Shown here in pieces: positions 33,904 through 39,105 of a stretch of DNA of 48,089 nucleotides (position 1 is its first letter; each line of letters starts with the position of its first letter). The stretch lies in IMG/VR virus record IMGVR_UViG_2648501149_000023; one strand, written 5' to 3'. Position numbers and translations under genes: made by a program. Source of the stretch: a virus (lineage: Duplodnaviria; Heunggongvirae; Uroviricota; Caudoviricetes). The notes beneath the pieces are model-generated. The model made no database searches. It had not been told where the DNA came from and saw nothing but the letters and a program-made list of their open reading frames with translations.

Positions 33904-34077
33904 ATGACTGAAAAGATATCTTCCATCAAGCCGCGTCAGGTTCGTTTTACAGAAAAGGTTGATTCACATATCCGCGAATCAGCAAAAAGATGCCATAGGT
34001 CAATTCAGGCAGAGATAGCTTATCGAATGGAGTTATTGATGAAACTTGAGGCAAAGGGCGATGTTGTCATCCAATAA
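33904..34077 (+). CDS. Arc/Mnt-family ribbon-helix-helix repressor (Arc-like, 57 aa)
   Basis: Hand translation MTEKISSIKPRQVRFTEKVDSHIRESAKRCHRSIQAEIAYRMELLMKLEAKGDVVIQ has an RHH-type pattern (beta strand, then ...RS...EI...); below the ORF-track cutoff. Confidence 0.55.
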   Translation: MTEKISSIKPRQVRFTEKVDSHIRESAKRCHRSIQAEIAYRMELLMKLEAKGDVVIQ

Positions 34078-34160
34078 AAATAGTGAAGCCCGGCAGTGCG
34101 CGAACACAAACCGGGCCTCTATGTCAGTAACCGTATGCAAGGAAACTAACATGAATATTG
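34078..34160 (-). ncRNA. Possible sar-like antisense RNA across the ant RBS (hairpin plus U-run on the minus strand)
   Basis: GCCCGG...CCGGGC hairpin at about 34084-34112 is followed on the minus strand by TTCACTATTTTTATTGG; the transcript would be complementary to the ant RBS and start codon; a TACAAT -10-like hexamer lies on the minus strand inside the ant 5' end. Start is not mapped. Confidence 0.3.
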
Positions 34161-34777
34161 TAGCAAAATCAGATTACAACTTCCACGGAGTTGAGTTGGT
34201 GCCCACCCGTGATATGCATGGTGTTTGGTTTACATCATCTAATATTGCATCTGCACTTAAATATGCAAATAGCCGTGCAGTAACAATGATTTATAACAAG
34301 TATAGCGATGAGTTTAGCGCCGGAATGACTCAGGTACTCGAAGTGAGTACCTCAGGAAATTATCGCAAAAAAGTGCGAGTTTTCTCACTACGCGGTGCCC
34401 ACCTAATCGCGATGTTTGCTCGCACTCCGGTAGCCAAAGAGTTCCGCCGCTGGGTGCTGGATATTTTGGATCGGCAGGCAGAATGCTCACCGATTGCAAA
34501 ACAGTTTACTGACGAAGAACTGGTTAATCTCTGCTACTTACAATTGTGGATGGAGAAGAGTCAACAAATGTGCAAACACATCTACCCAGGAATGAAGCAA
34601 ATTGGTTCTGAGCTTTCAGGAAGAATTTACGATATTGCATATGAGACTCGCTATATGTCAGAAGAAACCAAGAAATCACTTCTTCGTGAAATGAAGAATC
34701 TTGATACCAACAATTTTGTCGTAAAGAACGCTCAGCCAATGCTGACAAAACTGCGCGGCGAGGAATGGATTCATTGA
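34151..34777 (+). CDS. Antirepressor with Bro-N/AntA-type N-terminal domain
   Basis: ATG at 34151 preceded by AAGGA; ...FHGVELVPTRDMHGVWFTSSNIASALKYANSRAVTMIYNKYSDEF...KVRVFSLRGAHLIAMFARTPVAKEFRRWVLDIL... fits the Bro-N pattern (recall). Confidence 0.65.
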   Translation: MNIVAKSDYNFHGVELVPTRDMHGVWFTSSNIASALKYANSRAVTMIYNKYSDEFSAGMTQVLEVSTSGNYRKKVRVFSLRGAHLIAMFARTPVAKEFRRWVLDILDRQAECSPIAKQFTDEELVNLCYLQLWMEKSQQMCKHIYPGMKQIGSELSGRIYDIAYETRYMSEETKKSLLREMKNLDTNNFVVKNAQPMLTKLRGEEWIH

Positions 34778-34865
34778 TTGGTGCGCCGGACGGCGCAAAA
34801 AGAAAACCGCCAGTGTGCTGCTGGCGGCCTATGTCACACCCTTACTACCACATAAGGAATGCCTA

Positions 34866-35591
34866 ATGACTTTGAAGAATGTAGCAAACATCGGATCCGT
34901 TGTCACGGATAAAACCATTGACAGCCAAAGTCTTCTGATGATGGTTAATGAAGCTCGCAAGTTATGTGGAGAGCCATCAGTACGTAACAACAAATTCATC
35001 GAGAAAATTGAGGATGAATTGGAGGGCGAGACCTACACAAAAAGTGTAGGTCGGAAAAACGGGGCTGACATTGATGTTATCTCCATGACTATCAAGCAGG
35101 CGCTTCGTGTTGCTGCTCGCGAATCTAAAGCAGTTCGCCGAACACTTGTAGACAAACTTGAAAGTATGCAAGAAGCGCACATTAAAAGCGGTAAATCGTC
35201 GAGTGGACTTGTTGAGTATCGCCAGGCTCGAACATTGAAAATGACGGTTGAAGCTGTTACCAATCTGTTAGATTTGATGCCAAATCTTGCGCCGGAAGCA
35301 AAGCAGACTGCGGCAGCAAGCATAATCAACCCGATAGTTGGTTTTAATGCAATACCTCTTCCAGCAATAGAAGAGCATTACTACTCAGCAGGGGAGGTTG
35401 CAGAGCAGCTTGGAGTAACGGCAAACAAGATTGGTCGCATTGCTAACGCAAACAACCTCAAAACTGAGCAGTACGGGAAGTTCTTCTTGGATAAATCTGC
35501 GCATTCAAGCAAACAGGTGGAAGCATTCCGCTACAATGCGGAGGGTGTTAAAGCACTACAACACCTGATTCATGGGAGCAATGTTGCATAA
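34866..35591 (+). CDS. Hypothetical immI-region protein (242 aa; possible antirepressor-associated or Rha-like)
   Basis: ATG at 34866 preceded by AAGGA; weak resemblance of ...EARKLCGEPSVRNNKFIEKIE... to Rha-type N-termini; function unassigned. Confidence 0.45.
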   Translation: MTLKNVANIGSVVTDKTIDSQSLLMMVNEARKLCGEPSVRNNKFIEKIEDELEGETYTKSVGRKNGADIDVISMTIKQALRVAARESKAVRRTLVDKLESMQEAHIKSGKSSSGLVEYRQARTLKMTVEAVTNLLDLMPNLAPEAKQTAAASIINPIVGFNAIPLPAIEEHYYSAGEVAEQLGVTANKIGRIANANNLKTEQYGKFFLDKSAHSSKQVEAFRYNAEGVKALQHLIHGSNVA

Positions 35592-35812
35592 TGGCAAAGA
35601 AAAGATATGGCATTATGCCGCCAAGAATCAAAGGAAGAGCCAGGGTAAAAGGAGATGCTGGAAGGTATCACATTCTTGGAGTTCTGTGGCATGAGAGAGC
35701 TTTAATTTTAAGTAGACCTCATGGGTACATTGAAAAGGTATCTATAGATAGAGTAGAGATTCTTCCCCTTACACCTGAAGAAGAAGAAACGTACGGACTT
35801 TTTGATAACTAA
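35591..35812 (+). CDS. Hypothetical small protein (73 aa)
   Basis: ORF overlapping the upstream stop; followed by a strong terminator. Confidence 0.4.
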   Translation: MAKKRYGIMPPRIKGRARVKGDAGRYHILGVLWHERALILSRPHGYIEKVSIDRVEILPLTPEEEETYGLFDN

Positions 35813-35821
35813 CCAACTAAA

Positions 35822-35850
35822 CCCGCTTAATTGCGGGTTTTTTCTTTTCT
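35822..35850 (+). terminator. Intrinsic terminator (ACCCGC/GCGGGT hairpin plus T-run)
   Basis: ACCCGCttaattGCGGGTTTTTTCTTTTC just after the 35591..35812 ORF; the minus-strand Mnt-like gene ends within it. Confidence 0.7.
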
Positions 35851-36084
35851 AAGGATATCAGCCACAACTTCTTTTACTCGTTCCGAGATTAATGAGGCCA
35901 GCCTCTCTTCTTCATCACGATACCCGCTTACAGGTGATGGTTTGGAGAGTGATTCTTCCATCGTAGCCACAATTTCGGAATTGATAGACCTGTTATTCAT
36001 TTTTGCACGTTGCTTAATCTTAGCGTGCAACTCGTGCGTAAGCCTCAAGTGGAACTGCGCCTCATCGTATTTGCTGTACATCAT
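35827..36084 (-). CDS. mnt: Mnt-like ribbon-helix-helix repressor (85 aa)
   Basis: ...AQFHLRLTHELHAKIKQRAKMNNRSINSEIVATMEESLSKPSPVSGYRDEEERLA... parallels P22 Mnt (...RSMNSELLQIVQDALSKPSPVTGYRND..., recall); ATG at 36084 with GGTGAGG RBS. The longer ORF-track version (to 36558) runs antisense into the tailspike gene start. Confidence 0.7.
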   Translation of the reverse strand: MMYSKYDEAQFHLRLTHELHAKIKQRAKMNNRSINSEIVATMEESLSKPSPVSGYRDEEERLASLISERVKEVVADILRKEKTRN

Positions 36085-36216
36085 CAATGCCTCACCAAAT
36101 GGGTGGAATGGCATCGTAAAACCTACTGTACAAATCAACAATCGTACCATTTCGGTATGCAACAAACACCAACCGTAGCCATGCTTCGGTGATTCCTTGT
36201 ATCTGGAGCAAATTAA

Positions 36217-38382
36217 ATGACAGATTCGATAAATGCCAATGTTGTAGTGAGTATGCCTTCGCAACTCTTCACTATGGCGCGTTCTTTTAAAGCCGTAGCC
36301 AATGGTAAAATTTATATCGGTAAAATTGACACTGACCCGGTAAACCCTGAAAACCAGATTCAGGTTTATATAGAGAACGAAGACGGCTCTCACGTTCCTG
36401 TTTCGCAACCAATCATCATTAACGCTGCTGGTTATCCGGTATATAACGGACAAATTGCCAAATTCGTTACTGTACAGGGCCATTCTATGGCTGTTTATGA
36501 TGCATACGGTGCGCAGCAGTTTTATTTCCCTAATGTGTTGAAGTATGAGCCGGATCAATTAAGGTTGGAGCTTGAATCATCTGGTGGAGCAGGATTGATA
36601 GGTGGTGTTTCGAAGCCTATTACTTTTTTTGGTGCTATTGGTGATGGATTAACAAACAATACGCAGGCATTTAACGATGCAGAGATATTAGAATTCAATG
36701 ACATCTACATTCCTGATGGTGTTTATAATGTAAATAATATTAACTTAAATAAGAGATATTGGGGGCCTGGCATAGTAGTGATTAATTACCAGACTGAATA
36801 TTCTGGCTCTGGTGTTAACGACATGACCGTGTCAGGAATATACAATGGACAGCAAGATCTAAATGCAATTGTAAGAATAAAAGAAGCTTCAAATCCTGAT
36901 AAGCTTGAATTCAGTACAGATAATGGAGTTACATGGCATGACACGATAGACGTGTACAATCCAATCGATGACAGTGTATCTCCGCAACCAATCGTAATAC
37001 TTGCAGGCGGGGTGGATTTTTTCGTGAGTGGATTGAAGATAAACTTTTCTTCAACCACTGGACATACAGTAAATGACTCATGGTCATTTTTCATTCCTTC
37101 CAATCCATCAGTAATAAACACGGGAAGTGGCAGCATCGTTAAATCAGGAAGCGTTATTTTTAATGTTAGCGGAAACAATGATACTAATACTTCCGCTGGA
37201 AAAGACTCATTAGGCGGTGGAAACGTAGGAGCTAACAATACCGCATATGGGTGGAAGAGTTTGCACTCAAACACTACAGGATACGCAAATACCGCGTCTG
37301 GGATTCAGTCTATGGAAAACAATAAGACTGGTAAAAACAATTGTGCATACGGTGCTGATTCTCTAAGAGCTAACGTATCTGGTTCTGATAACGTAGCGGT
37401 TGGGGTCTTTGCGTCCGGAGCAAACACAACCGGGTACGGTAACACTGGACTTGGTAACGATGCCAATAGGTACAATGAAACAGGATTCGGAAATACCGCA
37501 GCGGGTGTGCAGGCACTGTACCACAACAAGGCCGGTAATGAGAACACAGCTTTCGGTGAATACGCATTACGCGGAGGAAATTCCAGCCTACCTACGGGAA
37601 CATCCATTCAGTATTCCGTCGCTGTAGGAGCTAAAGCCGGTTTCAACGCGTTAGGTAATAATAATACAGCTATAGGTTACGAGGCGCTATATTCTGCATC
37701 AGGATCTGATAATGTTGGTATTGGATTCGATGCAGGGTTTAAAGTAACGGCTGGTGCTTTCAATGTATTTTTAGGTTCTAATTCTGGTAACGGGTCAGAG
37801 CAGGCTACAGATGTGACAAACTGCGTCCTTATCGGAGATAATACAAAATCAACCGGAAGTAACGCAGTAGCTATCGGTAGTGGGGTAATTGCCGCTCAGA
37901 ATACTGTAGCTATAGGTAATAGTGAGCATGAATTATTCTTGCATTATGGGAAATTTATACCACAAATTGATAATGCTTTTGATATTGGTGGGCCGGATGC
38001 GAGATATAAAACAATATATGCAACTACAGGAATGATAAATACATCAAATGAAATGTTGAAAACAAAACTAACAGACATTGATGTTGCTGAAAAAAAAGCT
38101 GCACTAGAAATAAAAGATAATATTAAAAAGTTTAAGATGCTGGATTCTGTTGAGGTAAAGGGATTTGATGGTGCTAGGTGGCATTTTGGTGTTGGAGCTC
38201 AAACTGTTGGTAATATAATGAGGAAGCACGGACTTGATCCTAGTAAGTATGGGTTTTGGTGTCACGATAAAACGCATCGCGAACACATGACTGGAAATAT
38301 AGATATCTTTTGTGAAAGTTATGGTATAAGATATGACGAACTTGCAATGTTTATATTGGCATCAATATCTTTATGTGAATAA
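36217..38382 (+). CDS. Tailspike protein (P22 gp9-type head-binding domain, distinct receptor-binding domain)
   Basis: Residues 1 to about 110 ([60 protein letters not shown]...[13 protein letters not shown]...NVLKYEPDQ) match the P22 gp9 N-terminus (recall); the rest is N/G/T-rich repeat sequence (GNTxxG...); C-terminal SNEMLKTKL... segment could be an intramolecular chaperone module. Confidence 0.85.
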
Positions 38383-38408
38383 ACTTTGTAAATGAAGTGA
38401 ATTGCAAA

Positions 38409-38478
38409 TCCTTGTACTTGATTGCAAGGCTTTGTGCTCTTCGATAATGGTTAAGGTGGATCACTCCACCTTTTCATC
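38409..38478 (+). terminator. Two hairpins downstream of the tailspike gene (candidate late-operon terminators)
   Basis: CCTTGtacttgattgCAAGG followed by CTTTGTGCTCTT, then GGTGGAtcactCCACC followed by TTTTCATC. Confidence 0.45.
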
Positions 38479-39105
38479 AATCCAGTCCGCCCACCACTGC
38501 ATCATTTCTCTGCGCTTAACGTAGCGGATGCCTCACTATCACACGGTGATAGTCCATTGCTGCTTTGAAGAATGGATAGAGAACTGAGGATAAAAAGATA
38601 TCCCAAAACCCAAAATCTCATCTTTAGGATTTGCAGAAAGGTAGGCGTGAACAAATACCTGCGCATGAAAACGGAACTAGTCCAGATGTGATGTTTGTGG
38701 TGATCACATACATCATTAACGATGCTCGTTATGGTGAGTTTGATGACTACCCGCTGAAGTGAAAATTGTGTTGTGTACCAAATTGCGTACCAAACTAAAA
38801 TCACAAATCATGAAACCCTTGTTCATGGCGGTTCTTAGGGGTGTTGCGCGTAATCGTGAAACAAAAAGGTAGATTGTTGCTTACCGTCATTCATCATTAG
38901 GTTAAATCCGTTATTTCTGCTGTCTGCCAGAGTATCAAATATCACCGTGCTAATCAGCTTTAGCGCGACAATTTGGCAGCGAGTGGCAACAGATCATGTC
39001 AGATAAAAATGAGGTAGTAGTCACATTTTCTTGCACTTTATTCCAGCCAGTTCATAAGTATTTCCGTAAAAAGAACAGCTATTTGAAACACCTGAGGGTT
39101 TGCTG

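Follow-up and report, generated by a model that had tools for sequence, protein, structure and literature searches.

The gene at positions 36217 to 38382 of the window (the entire 48,089-nucleotide stretch of DNA analysed here, IMG/VR virus record IMGVR_UViG_2648501149_000023, which is a segment of an Escherichia coli chromosome) encodes, as judged from its sequence, the functional-looking receptor-binding spike of a P22-like (Lederbergvirus-type) prophage that is intact and lies next to dacD, and comparison with other phage genes provides evidence of a four-piece mosaic with an apparently very recent exchange. Dozens of genomes already list the product under the name 'phage tailspike protein', and it belongs to a familiar class of modular proteins. 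We consider it likely that it is a functional, trimeric, anchored spike that is folded by an S74 chaperone, cleaves itself, binds glycan and probably lacks canonical depolymerase activity. The gene and its immediate surroundings are as follows:

36217..38382, plus strand: complete tailspike (receptor-binding protein) gene, 721 aa plus stop, ATG start
36205..36208, plus strand: Shine-Dalgarno-like GGAG, 8 nt 5' of the tailspike ATG, read from the sequence
35827..36093, minus strand: Arc/Mnt-like repressor gene of an immI-type region (Pfam Arc, E 1.1e-14), adjoining the tailspike gene upstream
38405..39099, plus strand: right prophage end, where sequence common to other E. coli restarts 22 nt past the tailspike stop and is followed by dacD

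Upstream of the tailspike gene, an intact P22-type virion module is present in the P22 order (terminase, portal, coat, gp10, Sf6-type needle and ejection protein), with Pfam matches to P22_portal, P22_CoatProtein, gp10 (Phage_stabilise), the needle knob and Inj_translocase, and the tailspike gene stands at the end of this module. The gene follows an immI-like region, as it does in P22, Sf6 and HK620; a gene call for the Arc/Mnt-like gene is present in L009 as well. Downstream, dacD, sbmC and yeeA are found, and Ecol_AZ146 and other E. coli have, at the same dacD site, a P22-like prophage whose tailspike shares the anchor but has another receptor body. Antisense ORFs overlapping the tailspike gene were set aside as spurious, and a scan for promoters and terminators at this gene yielded nothing beyond shuffle expectation.

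The full gene, at about 96% nucleotide identity, was found in 2 of the 5426 complete E. coli genomes, APEC O2-211 and GPEC60-33-648, both from chickens; the anchor-encoding 5' end (roughly the first 345-370 nt) is present in 1084 genomes of the complete E. coli set. This rarity, and a GC content of 0.40 that is low relative to the prophage (0.50 in the virion module), might suggest a decayed, non-functional remnant, or repeats that are a compositional artefact. Such a reading is effectively excluded by the unbroken frame of 721 codons with its Shine-Dalgarno sequence, the intact virion module, the 47 near-identical sequences from E. coli and Escherichia albertii, mostly of 720-721 aa, that form the 90%-identity protein cluster, the conservation of the core in replicating lytic phages (96-100%) and a repeat periodicity far above that of shuffled sequences, the last two of which are described below.

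The N-terminal part of the protein is the tail anchor:

36217..36558, plus strand: P22-type head-binding (tail-anchor) domain, residues 1-114, identified by Pfam PF09008 and PDB matches

The PF09008 (Head_binding) match scores 219 bits (cut-off 24; E 1.3e-65) and aligns residues 4-114 with positions 3-113 of the 113-position profile. The PDB matches of the anchor, confined to residues 1-120, include Sf6 gp14 (7sg7, E 1e-62), HK620-type chains and, at E values of about 1e-48 to 1e-50, constructs of P22 gp9, 2vky and 2xc1 among them. In alignments, the anchor is 72% identical to residues 3-118 of P22 gp9 and 87% identical to Sf6 gp14; its identity is 91.5% to HK620 gp9 over residues 1-129 (tblastn) and 76% to the CUS-3 tailspike over residues 1-154, and the anchor DNA is 95% identical to the Ecol_AZ146 prophage tailspike gene up to position 36560 (blastn). 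Homology indicates that residues 1-114 attach the trimeric spike to the tail hub in the manner of P22, Sf6 and HK620. The endorhamnosidase-type beta-helix body of P22 gp9 (gp9 residues ~125-666) is absent, the matches to 2xc1, 8tvr and 5gai ending at residue 120, in agreement with the first-pass annotation of this DNA, which had limited the resemblance to gp9 to about the first 110 residues. The P22, Sf6 and HK620 spikes share the head-binding domain with the tailspike described here but are wide right-handed beta-helices that carry a defined endoglycosidase site and lack an S74 domain, and no homology to them extends past residue ~120-130.

Two features mark the mosaic structure of the gene:

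36560..36585, plus strand: recombination junction, residues 115-123 (LRLELESSG), delimited by blastn end points
37372..37672, plus strand: putative conversion tract in the repeats, 100% identical to the metagenomic siphovirus allele but only 80-86% to those of the APEC O2-211 and GPEC60 prophages

In blastn comparisons, homology to P22-like anchors stops at 36560, and homology to lytic-type receptor-binding protein (RBP) genes, namely those of ST4, P817 and a metagenomic siphovirus, starts at 36585. Nucleotide identity to these lytic-type genes is ~70% across the cap, 96-100% from ~36885 to 37585 (to 37885 in the case of the siphovirus contig) and drops in the chaperone. It is these sharp anchor and cassette boundaries, together with the stepwise course of nucleotide identity along the gene, that indicate the four-piece mosaic, and the 300-nt patch at 37372-37672 looks like a conversion tract, judging from its identity to the different alleles.

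At the protein level, the body from residue 114 is 77% identical to a 742-aa ORF of ST4 (a G7C-like podovirus) and to the 833-aa 'tail fibers protein' of P817 (a T1-like siphovirus of Nouzillyvirus; UAV84693.1), and 84% identical to a 720-aa protein with a Tail_spike_N anchor encoded on the ~58-kb metagenomic siphovirus contig L007. Core residues 205-570 differ at 31 aa in P817, 23 aa in ST4 and 6 aa in the metagenomic siphovirus protein P0003. All three proteins have the receptor-binding cassette in common with the tailspike, whereas their anchors are unlike its own: the body that follows Head_binding in the prophage is fused in ST4, P817 and the siphovirus contig to Tail_spike_N or to anchors of other types; their caps are ~70% identical, and their chaperones belong to another lineage (40-63% identical). 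Pas et al. (2023, PMC10408124, Table S1) place the P817 RBP in subtype 'X49', without a serogroup assignment. With the membership threshold for X49 taken from the same paper (at least 30% amino acid identity across the receptor-binding domain, RBD), the tailspike belongs to this subtype, its identity to the P817 RBP being 76.9% over residues 115-717. In the same study, each genus was found to keep its anchor, while RBDs moved between Lederberg-, Gamaleya-, Nouzilly- and other viruses (Pas et al., 2023). The receptor-binding body (residues 123-609) would be a cassette that was moved by recombination between unrelated phages sharing a host.

Receptor-binding cassettes determine the strains that a phage infects. 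The occurrence of this one, at 96-100% nucleotide identity in the core, in a temperate P22-like prophage and in three lytic phage types is a clean natural case of anchor/cassette swapping, and the cassette is a ready-made part for retargeting phages or tailocins. The combination of a P22 anchor with a foreign body and an S74 chaperone, for which CUS-3 is the precedent, and the exchange of cassettes across phage genera are already known. What is new is the occurrence of the X49 RBD in P22-like prophages, the precise location of the junctions, the adhesin-like solenoid with its 17-residue repeat and the recognition of the uncurated Asp-box/TTGHT domain.

Residues 115-721 were partitioned using a 36-sequence family alignment, two AlphaFold2 models and fold searches; the two monomer models are of only moderate quality (pLDDT 71 and 75) and do not fix the handedness of the solenoid or the packing of the trimer. 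Following a linker (residues 115-134), the body opens with two domains:

36619..36795, plus strand: N-terminal cap and first rungs of a pectate-lyase-type beta-helix, residues 135-193 (including IYIPDGVY and KRYWGPG)
36796..37128, plus strand: uncurated Asp-box / 'TTGHT..W' beta-sandwich domain of ~100 aa, residues 194-304

The second of these is modelled with pLDDT 82-91 as a compact beta-sandwich that contains an Asp-box-like hairpin (S233-T-D-N-G-V-T-W) and an invariant T-G-H-T...W motif; the invariant residues are G197, D202, I221, D228, S233, G237, G272, G282, H283, T284 and W289. Beyond the Asp-box motif, residues 194-304 have no sequence match in Pfam, PHROG or PDB. An exhaustive HMMER search identified 311 clusters at 50% identity, in settings that include small stand-alone proteins and tandem arrays of up to 14 copies, and this distribution shows the beta-sandwich to be an independent, mobile domain.

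The next part of the body is a solenoid:

37180..37926, plus strand: beta-solenoid of 17-residue repeats, residues 322-570, with a 23-aa insertion at residues 458-480

Eight copies of the repeat (consensus xxNTAxGxxSLxxNxTG) are exactly in phase (residues 322-457), and at least three more follow the insertion. Compared with shuffled sequences, the identity autocorrelation of residues 321-575 peaks at lags 17 and 34 (z=7.3 and 7.0, respectively), and NxxxG occurs 13 times as against 5.9 +/- 2.1; the composition of residues 331-600 is 13% N, 16% G, 13% A and 8% T. The Asn/Gly/Thr-rich repeat domain of the first-pass annotation is real, as the lag-17 signal indicates, but the 'many GNTxxG units' ascribed to it amount to two literal occurrences, the actual unit being 17 residues long. 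Likewise, the non-P22 part is unrelated to P22 as proposed but does not consist of a single repeat domain, since the beta-helix cap and the Asp-box beta-sandwich precede the repeats. Several polar residues in turns 6-8 (D415, R418, Y419, Q432, Y435 and R452) are conserved family-wide and could form a hitherto unrecognised active site.

The Pfam YadA_head family matches 20 of the 36 relatives, the tailspike itself falling below the Pfam threshold, and the sole non-phage PDB profile matches of the repeats are weak ones to EibD (E 0.01) and YadA (E 0.39). At the level of sequence profiles, the only detectable relatives of the repeats point to the YadA-like heads of trimeric autotransporter adhesins (UspA1 3PR7, EibD 2XQH, YadA 1P9H). 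The repeat period of adhesin heads is ~14-16 residues, compared to 17 in the tailspike, and, in contrast to these adhesins, the tailspike is phage-encoded and has no neck, coiled-coil stalk or membrane anchor; searches with the Pfam models of the autotransporter membrane anchor and coiled-coil stalk gave no match. Because the C-terminus is an S74 domain, without a YadA-type anchor, the protein would be adhesin-head-like at most and not a trimeric autotransporter adhesin. A literature search for YadA-like phage fibres gave no direct precedent.

The same repeats have to be weighed as part of a conventional active depolymerase, in which the cap (residues 135-193) would open a right-handed beta-helix to which the 17-residue rungs also belong, the Asp-box domain would loop out of it, and an unrecognised site would cleave or deacetylate the O-antigen or capsule, as in P22, HK620 and G7C gp63.1. 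We regard this as possible but somewhat improbable. The solenoid can be aligned with AlgE4, Pel9A and several phage depolymerases, but at 6-13% identity to the enzyme helices as against 21% to the UspA1 head, and its 17-residue rungs are far narrower than those of depolymerase beta-helices, which comprise ~22-25 residues. Acidic, basic and aromatic residues are kept on successive rungs, and PF12708 matches 5 of the 36 relatives; yet no catalytic family of glycosidases, lyases or esterases was matched by the tailspike in Pfam, NCBIfam or PDB, and adhesin heads are the only relatives of the repeats at the sequence level. To our knowledge, the P22-like podoviruses characterised to date (P22, Sf6, HK620 and CUS-3) all have enzymatically active spikes, which is well established and renders a purely binding spike less likely a priori. 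Furthermore, exchanged RBDs of this kind are taken as O-antigen-specific tailspikes by Pas et al. (PMC10408124).

The C-terminal part comprises the end of the stalk and the chaperone:

37828..38043, plus strand: distal stalk, residues 538-609, homologous to the C-terminal end of endosialidase stalks (PF12219) and not to the catalytic propeller
38044..38379, plus strand: Peptidase_S74 C-terminal intramolecular chaperone domain, residues 610-721, identified by PF13884, PDB and Foldseek matches
38044..38061, plus strand: predicted autocleavage site, Ser610 (38044-38046) and Lys615 (38059-38061), located by alignment

The PF12219 (End_tail_spike) match to residues 538-609 covers only profile positions 90-160 of 160 (E 1.8e-6), and the segment also matches residues 650-683 of 4hiz; in the model-based partition, the solenoid takes up residues 322-570, the stalk end 571-609 and the chaperone 610-721. 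PF13884 (Peptidase_S74) matches residues 610-673 (23.4 bits, cut-off 22) and is found in 35 of the 36 family members. Residues 574-717 match the chaperone-bearing ends of PDB entries 7y5s (1e-18), 6eu4 (2.5e-15), T5 pb1 4uw8 (1.9e-13) and endosialidase K1F 3gw6 (5.5e-9). Foldseek assigns probability 1.00 to 4uw8, which is the best match, 3gw6 and 3gud; in the whole-model search, chaperone matches dominate and beta-helix matches are generic. In the S74 family, self-cleavage at a Ser-Lys dyad frees the domain once it has served as the template for trimer folding. The corresponding residues of the tailspike lie at the domain start in S610-N-E-M-L-K615 (S-x4-K), are each more than 90% conserved in the 36-sequence family, and coincide in the alignments with the Ser->Ala position and the Lys of the constructs crystallised as 4uw8 (INTADARLK) and 3gw6 (IVTANGERK). 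An intramolecular chaperone had been suspected in the C-terminal part starting with SNEMLKTKL, and this suspicion is borne out by Ser610 being the first residue of the Peptidase_S74 domain, by the intact dyad and by the PDB matches (1e-18 to 5e-9). The S74 domain would nucleate trimerisation of the preceding stalk and then remove itself; we infer autoproteolysis at Ser610/Lys615 that would release a predicted fragment of 12.8 kDa and leave a mature chain of 609 aa (63.8 kDa).

Similar architecture is seen in the tailspike of CUS-3, a P22-like prophage of E. coli K1 RS218, which likewise combines a P22-type anchor, a non-P22 body, an endosialidase-type stalk end and an S74 chaperone; both tailspikes come last in a P22-like prophage. 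In principle, the protein might then be a K1-specific endosialidase like that of CUS-3, given the End_tail_spike and Peptidase_S74 matches, the Asp-box, the 76% identical anchor and the frequency of K1 among APEC O2 strains (as taken from strain names). This reading is extremely improbable and was rejected. The End_tail_spike match, restricted to profile positions 90-160, and the similarity to 3gw6 and 4hiz are limited to the stalk end and the chaperone; End_beta_propel, End_beta_barrel and End_N_terminal are not matched in Pfam, by which the GH58 six-bladed sialidase beta-propeller with its beta-barrel insertion is not present; and the lone Asp-box lies in a beta-sandwich of ~100 aa and not in a propeller. 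Where CUS-3 has the GH58 propeller, the tailspike has the cap, the Asp-box sandwich and the solenoid of 17-residue repeats instead. The L-shaped tail fibre pb1 of T5 (PDB 4UW8) has a homologous distal stalk and S74 chaperone with the same Ser/Lys site. It differs in being a long siphovirus fibre with another receptor-binding domain, and the homology does not extend further upstream than the stalk end. O-antigen is bound by pb1 without enzymatic action, and a functional analogy with it is favoured for the tailspike.

In our preferred reading, that of a glycan-binding spike, the body would consist of a short beta-helix cap, a lateral Asp-box beta-sandwich, a YadA-head-like solenoid of ~13-14 turns of the 17-residue repeat and an endosialidase-type stalk end. 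The spike would use the solenoid, the Asp-box domain, or both to bind a surface polysaccharide of E. coli or E. albertii. In its action it would resemble binders of the T5 pb1 or adhesin type more closely than the canonical P22 endoglycosidase, because no recognisable catalytic module is present, and depolymerase activity is probably lacking given the absence of catalytic family matches and the adhesin-like rungs; a cryptic enzymatic activity is possible. If the spike is non-enzymatic, the assumed way in which P22-like phages cross the O-antigen layer would need revising; if not, it is one more ordinary representative of a class that has been described in detail. A more far-reaching proposal is a strictly adhesin-type, non-hydrolytic P22-like spike built from the YadA-head-like solenoid and the Asp-box/'TTGHT' domain, of which the latter would be a new glycan-binding module; the receptor of the spike would be something other than a single O-antigen type, given that O2 and O119 E. 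coli as well as E. albertii are among the lysogens. We consider this proposal unlikely.

The O-antigen clusters of the two complete lysogens are different, with O2/O50 wzx/wzy in APEC O2-211 and an O119 cluster in GPEC60-33-648, and among the 136 O2/O50 genomes the spike gene is found only in APEC O2-211. Assignment of the receptor by lysogen serotype was dropped because of this disagreement. The Gnd and Ugd proteins are identical between the two lysogens, so that a switch of O-antigen after lysogeny is possible. This leaves two possibilities: a receptor other than a single O-antigen type, or a change of O-antigen in the lysogens after they had acquired the prophage. The close phage homologues of the receptor domain are the ST4 and P817 proteins only, and no homologue of characterised specificity, which would have spoken against the first-pass annotation, was found. 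The paper on ST4 describes two RBPs on the phage and a host range determined by spot test only; a literature search for phage P817 found no dedicated paper. The specificity different from that of P22, which had been predicted from the divergence of the body, is borne out through the host, since the prophage resides in E. coli. Finally, avian sources recur in this family: the two prophage-carrying isolates are from chickens, and P817 comes from poultry-farm sewage.

The tailspike gene is a composite. The chaperone domain (window 38044-38379), which was compared with the counterparts in P0003 (the receptor-binding protein of a ~58-kb metagenomic siphovirus contig) and in the related proteins P0005 and P0007, shows 40-63% identity to alleles with a 96-100% identical core. 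Conversely, residues 625-684 within this domain are 73-86% identical to P0007, the core of which is merely ~25-65% identical, indicating that the chaperone domain and the core differ in ancestry. A smaller patch of 300 nt within the repeat region (window 37372-37672) shares 80-86% identity with the alleles of the lysogens APEC O2-211 and GPEC60-33-648 but 100% with that of the metagenomic siphovirus; it looks like a gene-conversion tract between prophage and lytic phage.

A further domain lies N-terminal to the repeats:

36796-37128 (residues 194-304), Asp-box or 'TTGHT..W' beta-sandwich domain of ~100 aa

No sequence match to this domain was detected in Pfam, PHROG or PDB. It is contained in 311 representative clusters. 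Among these are small stand-alone proteins, proteins with as many as 14 copies in tandem, and one protein with a match to a head-tail adaptor family in its C-terminal part. The proteins noted for this domain are P0123, P0128, P0132, P0138, P0161, P0173, P0193 and P0216. A word-index protein search with a 136-aa query (window 36799-37206) returned no match even though 98-100% identical proteins are present in the same database; this empty result is a sensitivity limit for that query and not biology.

Upstream of the tailspike gene, the following features were delineated:

34046-36093, immI-like region
35827-36093, minus strand, Arc/Mnt-like repressor gene within the immI-like region

Besides the repressor gene, this region encompasses a Bro-N/P22_AR_C antirepressor-like ORF, a 258-aa ORF (the second one), for which no Pfam match was found, and a 73-aa ORF. 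A 243-aa minus-strand ORF listed at 35827-36558 was rejected as an over-extension of the small Arc/Mnt-like gene.

The tailspike cluster (P0001; 47 members at >=90% identity) is represented in genomes of Escherichia albertii and E. coli. Among the lysogens, APEC O2-211 (L004, 3232115-3250000) and GPEC60-33-648 (L006, 4893562-4914969) encode identical GndA and Ugd proteins but differ in their O-antigen clusters, namely O2/O50 with ISAs1 remnants and O119, respectively, which suggests an O-antigen switch within one genomic background.

The tailspike-bearing prophage of GPEC60-33-648 appears to be tandemly duplicated (L005, NZ_CM142764.1 4482419-4524548): the tailspike gene is followed by intS, early genes and a second, identical lysis/KilA-N block, and the record contains two matching places.
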